31,647 nt of DNA from a virus (Duplodnaviria > Heunggongvirae > Uroviricota > Caudoviricetes). This document shows positions 6,001 through 9,000 of the stretch, in pieces (positions within the stretch are counted from its first letter, which is position 1; each line of letters begins with the position of its first letter). The stretch lies in the IMG/VR virus record IMGVR_UViG_2681813201_000018, positions 1-31,647 of that record, one strand, 5' to 3'. A program made the position numbers.

Positions 6001-9000
6001 CTTTAATACCGAGACGTTTTCTGACTTTGTCATTTTTTGCTTCGTAATACAGTGGGTAAACTTGTTTATCGGTGCTCATTGTTTTTTAACCTCAACTCAG
6101 ATTAAAATTCGTTTGTTCAGTGAATAATCTTGCCGGATACACACTGTTCATAGCCTGTGCCATACGCAGGCTATTTCTTTCAGATTTCACCTTTTAATTT
6201 CATTGCAATAAGAGTTGCCAGAAATTCGGCTTTTTTTTCTGCGGGCAGATTCTTTCCGATATGCACCAGGCACATTTTTTTTGACGCCTTCGTTAAGTGT
6301 TTTAACGTTGCCTGATGGACCGTCGATATCAACCACAGTGAAAGGGGTTTCTTTATTTTCTGTTTTAATCACGTAGCCAATACGCTTTCCTTCCAGGCTG
6401 ACTTCGTGAACAATGTCATCAGTAGTAACAACAGTGGCTTCATAACTGGTAATCATGTTTTTCTCCTTAATTAAGGTTGAGCGAATCCCTGCCATTGCTG
6501 GCATAAATTCAGTTTCGGATAGTCAGTTAATTAAAGTTCGTGTGCCATCTGGTCTTTTTCGGCACAGATTTCACTACAATATTTTTTCATTTCCGTCGTT
6601 GGTATAACTCCACGCATGAAATGAAGTGGTCTTGTAATGATTTTGCTTTCTTCAATTTCTTTATTGCAAAGGTGATAAGCACATTTTATTTTCTTAGTCA
6701 TTACCATGACTCCGCCTTTACAGGTAAACCATCACGACCGAGGAAGACTCTAATCATGCAGTCAGAAATGCATGTTTTTGTAGTCAGGCTACGAATATAA
6801 AGTTTTCGCTTTTTAATATTGTTTGCCGAGGCGATATATGTCCGACCTTCATGAAGAACATAATCGCCAGGGGTCACACACTGACGTGGTATTTCATCAG
6901 TTCCGAAGTGATGAGCAATCATAATTATCTCCATTTTTACAAATGAATTTTGTCGATGCGGTGCCTGGTGCCTCCAGGTGACGTTAACCAGTTAACAATT
7001 AACGCCGGATAATCCACCCATAACACTGATGCTTTTAACTGTGCCGCGTGCGCTTAGCCGCATTCACCGCATCACAAAATTCACTTTAAAAAGGGGCGGC
7101 AGGGCAGCTACGGAGTAGAACTGATGCCGCCAAAGACTAGACACAGCAATGTCGTTATTTACAACCGGAGGCGCACTCCCACCATTTAAATTTAACAGAC
7201 AAGACCGACTCTTTATGGATACCGGAAATGCGCCTTCGTGTTGTGCCCGGTTTTATTTCACCACCTCCGGGCTTTGGTGGCCTCGGCTATACCCCTACAG
7301 CAAGAATATTGAATTAATCCAATAAATGGTTTAGCTGGTATTTTTGGCAAGCCAGCGACGTGCGCCAGCTTCGGTTTTAAACGATTTGCTTTTGGTATAC
7401 GTCATGGCGGTGAATGTGCCGTCCTGATTGGGAAACACGCCACATACCAGAGATTCGTTGTTGCCAAGATCGATAGTATCCATGTTGACCTCATTTCCCC
7501 TTAACGCCGGGTGGCGGAACGTTTTATCTACTGCGCTTTGTATCAATCAACAACTGCCGTCATGTTCGTATGCCTCAGGCTGGCTACTTAGCCCTGTTCA
7601 GTGGCTGGATAACTCGAGGTATTGTCCTGCCGTTCTCTGGTGGGGCGTTGTTTGGATATGCTTATTAAACACAATACGTTTTCTTATGTCAACACGAAAT
7701 GTGTTTTGTGGTGGATGTCATATGATGATGGTACAAAAAAGCCCGCTGATAGCGGGCTGATTGGCATATTACTGTGATAGCAAGATCATTACTCCGGTGG
7801 GGGATTATCTTTAAGCCTGCCTCTCAAATATTTTTCTACATACTCATCGATTTCTTTTAGCCGGACTTCAAATAGCTCAATCATTCGTTGTTGTTCTGAG
7901 CCCGGTAGCTGGTTAAACAACTCAAGAAGTTTTCGTTGGGATTCATTTAACCACAATTCAGAAGATTCCTGTTCTCCAAATAGGAGCTCAGGAGGAGATA
8001 TGCCAAGTGCCTTTCCCAATACGACAGCGTCATGCACTCCAACATTTCTGCTGCCCGCCTCATAGTTACCTATACGCGATTGCGTCCATCCGCAGATTTC
8101 AGCAAGTTTTCCTTGAGATAAACCAAGCTTCTGCCTGCGCTCTTTAAGACGCATTGCAATTTTGTCATTGAGCCTACTAGCGGCAATTTTTTCGTTTTCT
8201 TTTTCCATTGCATCCTTGTATCACGAATCGTGATTTACATAAAACACAAAACAGCTTGACCATATAACACAAGGTGTGTTTAAAATTGTCATCGGAGGTT
8301 TTCAATGAACAAAATTTCAACATATCGAAAACAGCTTGGGCTGTCTCAAAGACAACTTGCTGTTCAGTTAGGGTGGATACAAAGCCGACTGGCAAATTAC
8401 GAAGCAAATTTTCGTACCCCTGGACTAGAGGAGTGCAGAAAAATTGTTTCTACCCTTAATCGGCTTGGCGCTCGTTGTGGACTTGACGATGTATTCCCCC
8501 CAGACGGTAAGCATAGCGAAAACAGCATAGGAGCGGTTGATTCATGAAAATCAGGCATGAGCATATCGAATCAGTGTTGTTAGCCCTGGCTGTTGAAAAA
8601 GGGCAGGCATGGGTAGCCAATGCCATTACTGAAGAATATCTGCGCCAGGGGGGCGGCGAATTGCCCCTTGTACCAGGCAAGGACTGGAACAATCAGCAGA
8701 ATATCTATCACCGTTGGTTGAAAGGTGAAACGAAAGCGCAAAGGGAAAAAATTCAGAAACTGATCCCTGCGGTTCTGGCAATTCTTCCGCGCGAGCTGCG
8801 TCACCGACTCTGCATCTTCGATACCCTGGAACGCCGTGCATTACTGGCGGCGCAGGAAGCGTTGAGTACGGCAATTGATGCGCATGATGAGGCAGTCCAG
8901 GCCGTTTACCGGAAAGCACATTTCAGCGGTGGTGGGTCGCCCGGCGATTCTGTCGTAGTGCATTGATTGAAATTAATCGTGCCGGATTGTTTTGTTCGGT

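Follow-up and report, generated by a model that had tools for sequence, protein, structure and literature searches.

A predicted lambdoid operator set at the early promoters of a Rac-like prophage of Escherichia coli O157:H7

Introduction

The DNA analysed here, a 31.6-kb stretch that we refer to as the window, raises the question of how many regulators read the early promoters of the phage that it encodes. AACACA/TGTGTT half-sites recur at the leftward early promoter (PL) and between the divergent immunity genes, where a palindrome of different appearance, ATCACGA-A-TCGTGAT, is also found. An earlier note on this DNA had proposed that one regulator recognises the ACACA half-sites at both early promoters while a second protein recognises the ATCACGA palindrome. 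The analysis presented below indicates that the ACACA motifs and the palindrome probably form one operator set of a single lambdoid immunity switch in a Rac-like prophage, with three sites in the repressor/cro intergenic region (OR) and two at PL.

Results and Discussion

The immunity region and its regulators

As a lambdoid prophage of E. coli O157:H7, the window is Rac-like, with the backbone known from Rac K-12 (recE, recT, kil, DUF1391, ydaT and ydaU/V), in which a divergent repressor and cro gene pair is separated by 96 bp predicted to hold face-to-face promoters (Table 1). The homologous RacR(PaaR2)-YdaS pair is not found here: the repressor gives E = 2.0 against RacR in BLASTP, which amounts to no homology, and Cro does not align with Rac K-12 YdaS. 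Since RacR and YdaS are thus non-homologous to the two regulators of the window, its immunity cassette is, by these alignments, one that has been exchanged relative to Rac K-12. The immunity type is present in 153 of 5,426 complete E. coli genomes.

A Pfam search of the repressor gave HTH families only and no S24 peptidase domain, i.e. the protein lacks the self-cleaving, RecA-stimulated S24 C-terminus of the lambdoid switch. Its AlphaFold2 model (pLDDT 86) consists of a five-helix HTH domain and a C-terminal helical hairpin, and in a fold search the modelled HTH domain matches those of P22 c2, 434 and C.AhdI at about 1 Å rmsd; model and fold search confirm no more than a helical C-terminus and an HTH_3 domain of generic type, and are silent on specificity. 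The C-terminal LLELFxxLPxSEQ motif is invariant in the alignment of repressor homologues (alignment A1), and with an N-terminal HTH_3 domain, a C-terminal helical domain carrying this motif and no peptidase the protein has the make-up of the DicA family. Over the HTH, repressor and Cro share 45% identity, and their recognition helices, WTQSRIGNYE and WIQSRLANYE respectively, follow the common pattern W-x-QSR-x-x-NYE. Because the recognition helix is shared, the two proteins are predicted to bind, probably, the same sites.

Table 1. Features of the immunity region, with positions in the window (operators and promoters are predicted).
Feature	Position	Strand	Description
PL, leftward early promoter	7664..7692	-	-35 TTGACA 7692-7687, 17-nt spacer, -10 TTTAAT 7669-7664
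O_L1	7668..7682		AACACAATACGTTTT; in PL spacer; one good half-site, one degenerate
O_L2	7691..7705		AACACGAAATGTGTT; perfect core
Intrinsic terminator	7740..7758	-	end of repressor transcript, just upstream of PL; 8-bp stem with 6 G-C pairs, then T run
Repressor, 139 aa	7789..8208	-	HTH_3 DNA-binding domain and DicA-like C-terminal helical hairpin
PRM, proposed repressor maintenance promoter	8215..8243	-	extended -10 TGA-TACAAG (-10 8220-8215), 17-nt spacer, weak -35 TTTATG 8243-8238
O_R3	8220..8234		ATCACGAATCGTGAT (ATCACGA-A-TCGTGAT); in PRM spacer, overlaps -10
O_R2	8243..8257		AACACAAAACAGCTT; one perfect half-site, one degenerate half
PR, rightward early promoter	8257..8285	+	-35 TTGACC 8257-8262, 17-nt spacer, -10 TTTAAA 8280-8285
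O_R1	8266..8280		AACACAAGGTGTGTT (AACACA-AGG-TGTGTT); perfect palindrome in PR spacer
Cro, 80 aa	8305..8547	+	HTH_3; 62% identical to VT1-Sakai Cro
YdaT box (candidate)	8537..8554		TTGATTCATGAAAATCAG (TTGATT-CATGAA-AATCAG); overlaps ydaT start codon; not ACACA-type
YdaT, CII analogue, 140 aa	8544..8966	+	94% identical to Rac K-12 YdaT

Promoters and operators

The near-consensus minus-strand promoter of the earlier note, PL, is present, and the positions of its -35 and -10 hexamers are kept in nine related group-A loci; DUF1391, kil and recE/recT are predicted to be under its control, and cro, ydaT and the replication genes under that of PR. The -35 and -10 of PR likewise keep their positions in relatives. 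Its TTGAC lies at a fixed distance from O_R1 in 13 of 16 related loci (the exceptions being L008, L028 and L009, where it is 1 nt closer), and the rightward promoter annotated in the Stx1 phage VT1-Sakai (AP000400) is placed as PR is in the window. A sigma-70 promoter scan of the window listed neither PL nor PR, because the rule applied demands an A at the second position of the -10 hexamer, where TTTAAT of PL, for instance, has a T. Hits of the same scan at 7761 and 8286 were disregarded, as they lie in or beside coding sequence and are not conserved. The proposed PRM is based on alignment with the relatives, which have TGG-TAAAAA at the same place, and on the annotated cI maintenance promoter of VT1-Sakai; its -10 ends 6 nt before the repressor ATG, and the repressor transcript may therefore be leaderless.

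We define an operator as a 15-bp near-palindrome of the form xxCAC(A/G)-N3-(C/T)GTGxx and a perfect core as CACR-N3-YGTG, the form preferred in this phage being AACACA-N3-TGTGTT. In OR, three related and partly symmetric candidate operators follow each other in exact 23-bp steps from start to start, or about two helical turns, and the starts of the two candidates at PL are likewise 23 bp apart. Roughly 575 bp separate OL from OR. The last base of O_R1 is the first base of the PR -10 hexamer, while the last base of O_R2, which is centred about 42 nt upstream of the repressor ATG, is the first T of the PR -35 and its other side abuts the PRM -35. The same geometry is found at PL, since the AA with which O_L1 begins on the plus strand pairs with the two leading T's of the -10 on the minus strand and O_L2 overlaps the -35 by 2 nt. 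Both promoters are accordingly laid out as a -35 hexamer, 4 nt and a 15-mer that enters the -10, by 2 nt at PL and by 1 nt at PR. A reading of the OR and PL regions as direct copies of one arrangement, with AACACA recurring at +23 and +9 in both, was dropped, for relative to the promoters the arrangement is mirror-symmetric, as in lambda.

PL had also been described as bracketed by AAACACA (7667-7673) and TGTGTTT (7700-7706), and these motifs, like the two intergenic palindromes, are indeed found at the positions given for them, but the pairing that the description implies does not hold, as the two are 33 bp apart and form the good halves of separate 15-bp operators. It should also be mentioned that O_R2 and O_L1 have a single good half-site each, and that their operator status rests on phasing and on stronger homologues in the relatives.

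Conservation and co-variation in related prophages

Taken over the whole window, the motifs are not conspicuous. The sequence AACACANNNTGTGTT is matched three times with at most two mismatches, a count reached by 25 of 100 shuffles, and all three matches fall in the two promoter regions; perfect-core sites number four (7691, 8220, 8266 and a stray one at 28634), and a Markov model expects 2.2. Such counts are non-significant on their own, and given that a short A/T-rich palindrome can arise randomly in promoter DNA they lend some support to the notion that the repeats are due to chance, are leftovers of a PL/PR promoter duplication, or form RNA or DNA hairpins with no role in protein binding. 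The whole-window shuffles were replaced by positional and comparative tests on 14 related loci from six genera, with 10 loci that have a different repressor DNA-binding domain as the control set.

Homologues of the repressor with 54-84% identity are found in Salmonella, Citrobacter, Serratia, Klebsiella, Dryocola (L004), Pectobacterium, Kosakonia and Enterobacter. In these relatives perfect-core sites lie about 73 and about 26 nt upstream of the repressor ATG; between them, at about 50 nt, is a weaker O_R2, and in most loci there are further sites on a promoter some 50-125 bp past the repressor stop codon; the operator positions are kept and the N3 spacers vary. In the 14 loci, the 100 bp that precede each repressor start codon (14 x 100 bp in all) contain 25 perfect-core sites, versus 23 in the other 77.9 kb, about two-thirds of the latter being PL sites, which amounts to an approximately 59-fold enrichment upstream of the repressor. 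No perfect-core site is found at this place in the 10 loci that have the same C-terminal domain and a different HTH domain, and such domain-swapped loci bear other palindromes, for instance TAAACA-N3-TGTTTA at -73.

The outer operator bases furthermore co-vary with the recognition helix, W[TAV]QSR going with AACAC...GTGTT, WATASR with GACAC...GTG(T/A)C and WSGA[SP]R with TTCAC...GTGAA, and the outer bases of the OL sites follow the type of their own OR in most halves, deviants being for example AACACA in L009 and CTCACA in L030. The WATASR helix is found in the Pectobacterium repressor and WSGASR in that of Klebsiella. A 96%-identical copy from E. coli keeps O_R1 and O_R3 intact; its substitutions fall in spacers, at R/Y positions or in weak half-sites, and at the O_L2 position it reads AACACAAAATGTGTT. 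There are exceptions to the pattern: the Yersinia locus L028 has a QSR-type helix yet only degenerate sites, L008 has a single site in a different layout, and L030 has a Cro identical to that of L022 but operators of the TTCAC type; either Cro reads mainly the operator core or this prophage is a mismatched mosaic. Co-variation of O_R3 with the type of Cro gave no independent signal among the window, L022 and L030, all of which have a WIQSR Cro, and the O_R3 of L030 fits its own repressor group.

Against enrichment of this size in 14 loci with variable spacers, outer bases that change with the recognition helix and sites that are gone upon a swap of the DNA-binding domain, an origin by chance, promoter duplication or hairpin formation is barely credible. 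We regard the comparative data as the decisive evidence for the predicted operators. The motif search in related prophages proposed in the earlier note thus finds the operators conserved in the immunity regions of the 14 loci, and the suggestion that the ACACA sites at both early promoters are one family belonging to a lambda-like switch is borne out by their position, by the 23-bp phasing, by a core kept across genera and by outer bases that co-vary with the helix at OR as well as at PL. Sites for host factors were also considered (CRP, TGTGA-N6-TCACA, TyrR, the LacI family and LexA) and rejected, their orientation or spacing being unfit. The operator strings had no match in a literature search, and the reviews of Stx-phage switches that were checked hold no data on this immunity type.

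The ATCACGA palindrome

The assignment of the ATCACGA palindrome to a second protein could not be upheld, since the palindrome has the same 6-3-6 architecture and CACR-N3-YGTG core as the other sites and fits their 23 + 23 bp phasing. By these features it is the third OR site, O_R3, and lies inside the predicted promoter of the repressor gene itself. That it is instead a separate operator read exclusively by Cro or another protein, with the ACACA sites left to the repressor, is nonetheless a view with some points in its favour. In each of its halves O_R3 departs symmetrically from O_R1 at two bases, having AT in place of AA and, at position 6, G in place of A. CACG/CGTG half-sites are enriched at O_R3 across the family (28 of 34 half-sites, versus 11 of 34 at O_R1, uncorrected for shared ancestry; by lineage 18 of 22 versus 9 of 22), and different sites do serve the lytic and the lysogenic regulator of some temperate phages, for example 186 and P2. 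However, the relatives have ordinary operators at the same position, such as AACACG-N3-CGTGGT, GCCACG-N3-CGTGGT and TTCACG-N3-CGTGAT, and in a Salmonella relative, whose repressor is 84% identical, this position reads ATCACG-CAT-CGTGAT. Half-sites of the ATCAC and AACAC kinds are moreover mixed within single operators of phage mEp213 (AACACATATTGTGAT, ATCACATTTCGTGTT and others) and of VT1-Sakai, whose record annotates AATCACGTTGCGTGTTA as an OR operator. The QSR...NYE helix that Cro and repressor have in common also speaks against exclusive recognition, as does the finding that in prophage CP-933P the operators footprinted by PaaR2 and by YdaS, its two regulators, overlap at OR as well as at PL (PMC8630535). 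On balance we consider a separate operator for a second protein unlikely. The O_R3 sites do appear from the half-site counts to be a systematic sub-class with CACG rather than CACA, and this could lead Cro and repressor to fill the sites in different orders, as at lambda OR3.

YdaT and its box

As in the Rac and CP-933P modules, the gene following cro encodes YdaT, and a box lies over its start codon. The YdaT box footprinted in Rac K-12 is ATGATTCATGAAAATCAA (PMC11879457) and the consensus in CP-933P is TTGATT-N6-AATCAA (PMC9986795), and the box in the window is thus likely the site for YdaT, which would be a third regulator of the module. One may ask if YdaT could instead be the user of the intergenic palindrome region, since footprints of Rac K-12 YdaT cover about 100 bp between racR and ydaS (PMC11879457) and since GTGATTTACATAAAACAC at 8230-8247 is a weak match to the consensus. 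This match is however at background level, 27 sites in the window matching the box with three mismatches or fewer, while the box over the ydaT ATG is near-perfect and placed as in Rac and CP-933P. In addition, the palindrome is conserved with the type of repressor DNA-binding domain and not with YdaT, and a function of the palindrome region in binding YdaT is therefore very unlikely.

Relation to known switches

The closest counterparts are VT1-Sakai and mEp213/mEpX1, whose repressors have DNA-binding domains homologous to that of the window (49% identity for VT1-Sakai and 58% for mEp213). The homologous DNA-binding domain, the homologous Cro and the CACR-N3-YGTG operators give the window the make-up of this immunity type. 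In VT1-Sakai and mEp213 too, OR and PL have three core sites each, spaced 23-24 bp apart, O_R1 falling within the PR spacer and O_R3 within the cI maintenance promoter; the GenBank record of VT1-Sakai already annotates such sites, as 'putative' operators. Their repressors have a LexA/S24 self-cleaving C-terminus, however, whereas that of the window is helical and DicA-like, they have three OL sites rather than two, the preferred outer bases differ, and they carry CII and N of the lambda type, whereas the window has YdaT on a Rac backbone. In the earlier description of a lambda-like switch built from non-lambda parts, the words 'non-lambda parts' therefore hold only in part, given that DNA-binding domain, Cro and operators are all homologous to those of the lambdoid phages VT1-Sakai and mEp213.

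Phage lambda has divergent genes, three OR operators about 23 bp apart, 17-bp sites with the half-site TATCAC, and three OL sites, O1 lying over the core promoter of PR or PL, O2 abutting the PRM -35 with its centre near -42, and O3 lying on PRM. The layout of operators and promoters in the window is alike, with divergent repressor and cro genes, three OR operators, operators of the same type at PL (their outer bases mostly matching the OR type) and a terminator after the repressor operon ahead of PL, and likeness extends to the half-sites, ATCAC/AACAC in the window, and to the Gln-Ser at the start of the recognition helix. The sites of the window are however 15 bp long rather than 17, two rather than three are found at OL, and the repressor is without a RecA-cleavable domain. 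This repressor resembles lambda CI in sequence only marginally, and only in the HTH domain (E 0.002-0.009). The Cro protein has no sequence similarity to lambda Cro; it is all-helical and of the HTH_3 type, as are the Cro proteins of 434 and P22, and not of the lambda Cro fold.

CP-933P of E. coli O157:H7, with its PaaR2, YdaS and YdaT, is likewise a Rac-like cryptic lambdoid prophage in which YdaT is the CII analogue with its TTGATT-N6-AATCAA box (PMC8630535, PMC9986795), and its repressor mRNA is leaderless (PMC8630535, PMC9986795). Its operator consensus is however of the GTTTAGTAA type, its repressor is in an operon with a toxin-antitoxin pair and its Cro analogue is YdaS. DicA of the Qin prophage aligns with the window repressor over the full length (29% identity to K-12 DicA, BLASTP E 2e-15), including the C-terminal LLELFxxLPxSEQ helices, and has no S24 domain either, and a DUF1391 gene is found downstream in both cases. 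Three DicA operators, Oc, Om and Oa, were predicted from sequence and only Oc bound DicA in vivo, from which DicA activates its own weak promoter (PMC3441716). The Oc sequence, TTGTTAGTCATAACTAACAA, is however absent from the intergenic region of the window, the operators there being of the CAC...GTG type, and DicC belongs to an unrelated Cro family.

A possible mechanism

Starting from what the analysis establishes, namely the positions, phasing and conservation of the sites, their co-variation with the helix and the homologies of the proteins, we infer the following scheme by analogy. Dimers of the repressor would bind O_R1, O_R2, O_L1 and O_L2 and thereby turn off PR and PL, probably with cooperativity by way of the C-terminal helical domain, and repressor at O_R2 may help the weak PRM, while occupancy of O_R3 would turn PRM off. 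Cro, with its near-identical recognition helix, would bind the same sites, though probably in another order, for which the CACG sub-class at O_R3 would be the likely discriminator between the two proteins. YdaT would act apart from these two, at the box that overlaps the start of its own gene.

Implications

The outcome is a testable operator map with three OR sites, two PL sites and one YdaT box, together with a suggested rule by which the two outer operator bases correspond to the residues (TQ, ATA or SGA) that immediately precede S-R in the recognition helix. The half-sites ATCACG and AACACG of the window taken together make up the VT1-Sakai operator O_R3 (ATCACGTTGCGTGTT), and it is because of this that cross-binding to operators of Stx1-type phages may be considered. 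A resident repressor that is itself non-inducible could then occupy the operators of an Stx1-type phage, be it co-resident or newly infecting, and change the immunity or induction of that phage by a route that does not involve RecA. The conserved CACG at O_R3, for its part, could serve as a discriminator between Cro and repressor throughout the family, but we rate both of these proposals as long shots. Since the architecture as such is textbook lambdoid and VT1-Sakai already has annotated operators of a related kind, current understanding is unchanged. Nevertheless, that one DNA-binding domain with its operator set is joined in some phages to an SOS-cleavable C-terminus and in others to a DicA-like one makes a modest point on the evolution of immunity cassettes.

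Predicted operator anatomy of the immunity region

The motifs at the two early promoters of this Rac-like prophage are most probably an ordinary lambdoid operator set, with three sites (O_R1 to O_R3) between the repressor and cro genes and two (O_L1 and O_L2) at the leftward early promoter PL. All four motifs of the earlier note are present where it had placed them and resolve as 15-bp near-palindromes of 6-3-6 layout, the three OR sites being spaced by exactly 23 bp. On this reading the AAACACA and TGTGTTT that were thought to bracket PL as one pair are not paired with each other, since the anatomy resolves into separate 15-bp operators and each is half of a different one. 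PL and the rightward early promoter PR are of common design, namely, along the transcribed strand, an O2 15-mer overlapping the -35 TTGAC(A/C), 4 nt, and an O1 15-mer overlapping the -10; they differ only by 1 nt in the overlaps of operator and hexamer (-35, 2 nt at PL and 1 nt at PR; -10, 2 nt of TTTAAT at PL and 1 nt of TTTAAA at PR). The mirror symmetry of operators and promoters about the repressor gene is the same as in lambda. O_R2 and O_L1 are half-sites, and as operators they are putative, on the grounds of their phasing and of stronger homologues in relatives.

Predicted sites and genes of the immunity region, with one stray match
Feature	Position	Strand	Sequence or product	Placement
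O_L1	7668-7682		AACACA-ATA-CGTTTT	PL spacer
O_L2	7691-7705		AACACG-AAA-TGTGTT	on PL -35
Strong terminator	7758-7740	minus		ends repressor transcript just before PL
Repressor	7789-8208	minus	139 aa, HTH_3 protein
O_R3	8220-8234		ATCACG-AAT-CGTGAT	PRM spacer and -10
O_R2	8243-8257		AACACA-AAA-CAGCTT	on PR -35, abuts PRM -35
O_R1	8266-8280		AACACA-AGG-TGTGTT	PR spacer
Cro-like protein	8305-8547	plus	80 aa, HTH_3 protein
TATGCT	8529-8524	minus	TATGCT	7 nt beyond YdaT box
Candidate YdaT box (by match)	8537-8554		TTGATT-CATGAA-AATCAG, TTGATTCATGAAAATCAG	over ydaT ATG
Lone perfect-core match	28634-28648		GGCACAGTGCGTGGC	far from immunity region

Motif counts over the whole window are not significant taken alone: AACACANNNTGTGTT with up to two mismatches has three matches, all inside the two promoter regions, and 25 of 100 shuffles reach three. 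The core CAC[AG]-N3-[CT]GTG has four perfect matches, starting at 7691, 8220, 8266 and 28634, where a Markov model expects 2.2; the last of these is most likely due to chance, because about two are expected per window.

Conservation in related prophages

The backbone of the window is Rac-like lambdoid, with the gene order int-xis-ralR-recT-recE-kil-DUF1391, followed by repressor, cro-like, ydaT, ydaV etc. Over the 1.7 kb of immunity region used as the query, the window matches a prophage that lies beside yebY in E. coli O157:H7 strain Z869, at 100% identity; among 5,426 complete E. coli genomes, 153 have the entire immunity cassette. Repressor homologues have 84% identity in Salmonella and 54-66% in Citrobacter, Serratia, Klebsiella, Kluyvera, Yersinia, Pectobacterium and others. 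A record named 'Actinobacillus phage vB_Apl-pPE4' (PP818812.1, H16/H69) has DNA 95% identical to the flanks of the immunity region and a repressor, annotated 'DicA', of 62.5% identity; its stated host seems out of place for Rac-like coliphage DNA.

We compared 20 loci from reference genomes, 15 places from assemblies and three phage records. The usable loci are all Rac-like prophages, with repressor, Cro-like HTH_3, YdaT and DnaT/P on one side and the promoter region followed by DUF1391, kil and exonuclease VIII on the other. In the motif search in relatives, a check that the earlier note had proposed, perfect-core sites occur in 14 loci at about 73 and 26 nt ahead of the repressor start codon, and a weaker O_R2 at about 50 nt; the N3 spacers vary. 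Of the perfect-core matches in these loci, 25 fall within the 100 bp before the repressor ATG (14 x 100 bp in all) and 23 within the rest of the sequence (77.9 kb), about two-thirds of the latter being PL sites. Most loci have further sites on a promoter with TTGAC that lies beyond the stop codon of the repressor, at a distance of about 50-125 bp (in L005, about 1.1 kb). Yersinia L028 and Raoultella L008 do not show the three-operator pattern. In an E. coli copy of 96% identity (L037) substitutions fall in spacers, R/Y positions or weak half-sites, O_R1 and O_R3 are unchanged, and O_L2 is the full consensus AACACAAAATGTGTT. Several Klebsiella prophages (L026 at 3453, L033 at 3469, L032 at 3472, L031 at 3681) furthermore carry a conserved perfect-core site, TTCACA(C/T)GTTGTGGG, 570-800 bp downstream of the repressor gene, found with either AACAC-type or TTCAC-type operators in the phage.

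The two outer half-site bases track residues at the start of the repressor recognition helix: W[TAV]QSRIGNYE goes with AACAC...GTGTT (window, L022, L002-L004, L024, L026, L033, phage Chris1), WATASRVGNYE with GACAC...GTG(T/A)C (L005, L009), and WSGA[SP]R[VIL]ANYE with TTCAC...GTGAA (L006, L030, L031, L035). OL sites mostly match the OR type of the same phage, a few halves deviating. In ten loci the repressor C-terminal domain is the same and the HTH domain unrelated, and no CAC[AG]-N3-[CT]GTG-type sites were found upstream of the repressor gene in these, which have other palindromes instead (TAAACA-N3-TGTTTA at -73 in L011 and L012). The co-variation and this absence together indicate that operator type follows the DNA-binding domain and not the phage backbone. 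L010-L019 and L021 combine a different HTH domain (GISKADMARIAGVTPQAVNGWF) with a DicA-like C-terminus, and different palindromes stand at their corresponding positions, about 120 bp upstream of the repressor, that of L013 being GTTTGCAT-ATT-ATGCAAAC.

A caveat is Salmonella L030, where a Cro identical to that of L022, a locus sharing the Cro type of the window, is coupled with TTCAC-type operators and another type of repressor (WSGSSR). L030 and L022 have their recombination junction (2400-2500) immediately 5' of the ribosome-binding site of cro, and Cro and operators in L030 may therefore be mismatched, or this Cro may read only the core.

The ATCACGA palindrome and the maintenance promoter

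The earlier note had assigned the ATCACGA palindrome to a second protein. It occupies the O_R3 slot, which reads ATCACG-CAT-CGTGAT in a Salmonella relative, AACAC(G/A)-N3-CGTGGT in other group-A phages, GCCAC(G/A)-N3-CGTGGT in group B and TTCACx-N3-CGTGAT in group C. Furthermore, mEp213 has six operators that mix both half-site types in single sites (e.g. AACACA-TAT-TGTGAT and ATCACA-TTT-CGTGTT), and the GenBank record of VT1-Sakai already lists 'putative operators' of CACR-N3-YGTG type, three at OR and three at OL, with AATCACGTTGCGTGTTA as the OR site within the cI maintenance promoter. On these grounds, and with a DNA-binding domain related to those of mEp213 and VT1-Sakai cI, the palindrome is probably a variant of the same operator and not a second kind of site. 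The notion of one lambda-like ACACA family at both early promoters is thus supported, with conservation in 14 loci and mostly matching OL and OR types, and that of a separate kind of site is not. What survives of the latter is that O_R3 sites are a systematic sub-class by half-site position 6: G stands at this position in 28 of 34 half-sites for O_R3 and in 11 of 34 for O_R1 (Fisher's test, 2e-6, uncorrected for ancestry; by lineage 18/22 against 9/22). It is plausible that this G would serve as a discriminator for the order of occupancy.

The right half of O_R3 merges with TGG-TAAAAA in relatives and with TGA-TACAAG in the window, in both cases a predicted extended -10 of the proposed maintenance promoter PRM, whose -35 is poor (TTTATG in the window, TTGAGC in L002) and abuts O_R2. 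In nearly all loci the proposed -10 stops 6 nt short of the repressor ATG, and most of them have no Shine-Dalgarno sequence there; this suggests a leaderless PRM transcript. The lambda cI transcript from PRM is leaderless, and so is that of PaaR2 (PMC8630535).

Proteins likely to read the sites

Over the HTH, repressor and Cro-like protein have 45% identity, with W-x-QSR-[IL]-x-NYE in common. Q[SP]R is retained by the Cro proteins of every group, and the repressors differ immediately before the S-R pair. The Cro of the window is 62% identical to that of VT1-Sakai and clearly homologous to that of mEp213. The repressor and Cro of 434 and of P22 are a precedent for common operator sites, and in the O157:H7 prophage CP-933P the footprints of PaaR2 and YdaS overlap at OR and PL (PMC8630535). 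Most likely, repressor and Cro would both use the same five predicted sites.

In its DNA-binding domain, residues 12-80, the repressor has 58% identity to the N-terminal domain of mEp213 cI and 49% to VT1-Sakai/mEpX1 cI. The full-length protein is homologous to Qin DicA (29% identity, E 2e-15), and this homology takes in the C-terminal helices with LLELFxxLPxSEQ. An AlphaFold2 model (pLDDT 86) has a five-helix HTH domain with recognition helix 43-51 and a C-terminal helical hairpin at 89-133, and a fold search matched C.AhdI, P22 c2 and 434 domains at ~1 A rmsd. We infer that the C-terminus oligomerises, giving cooperative binding at the 23-bp-spaced sites. One family of DNA-binding domain, operators and Cro is fused to an S24 LexA-like C-terminus in mEp213 and VT1-Sakai or to a DicA-like helical one in Rac-like prophages; judged by sequence, this is modular exchange at a domain boundary near residue 80. 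A domain search found no S24 peptidase domain in the repressor, which likewise has no RecA-cleavage domain, and induction, if any, must therefore take another route, such as an antirepressor, the balance of Cro or YdaT, or temperature, which is reported in the case of DicA.

The gene after cro encodes a YdaT-family CII analogue, 94% identical to YdaT of Rac K-12. The candidate YdaT box matches the Rac K-12 box known from footprinting, ATGATTCATGAAAATCAA (PMC11879457), as well as the consensus for CP-933P (PMC9986795). Box and TATGCT could together form a leftward promoter of PRE type that YdaT activates and that is read antisense across cro and on into the repressor gene; if so, the AAGGA Shine-Dalgarno in front of the repressor ATG would be part of its transcript.

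Relation to known systems

In function and layout the window follows the OR/OL design of lambda; its DNA-binding domain, operators and Cro belong by homology to the VT1-Sakai/mEp213 immunity type, its repressor C-terminal domain to the DicA family, and its backbone and YdaT to Rac. It differs from classic lambdoid switches, whose repressor is SOS-cleavable, and from the Rac module, since sequence comparison found no relationship of its repressor to RacR and its Cro lacks homology to YdaS. The immunity type seems to be experimentally uncharacterised, as no paper in the library searched gives these operator sequences. The system nonetheless belongs to a well-known kind, and operators of the same type are already annotated in VT1-Sakai.
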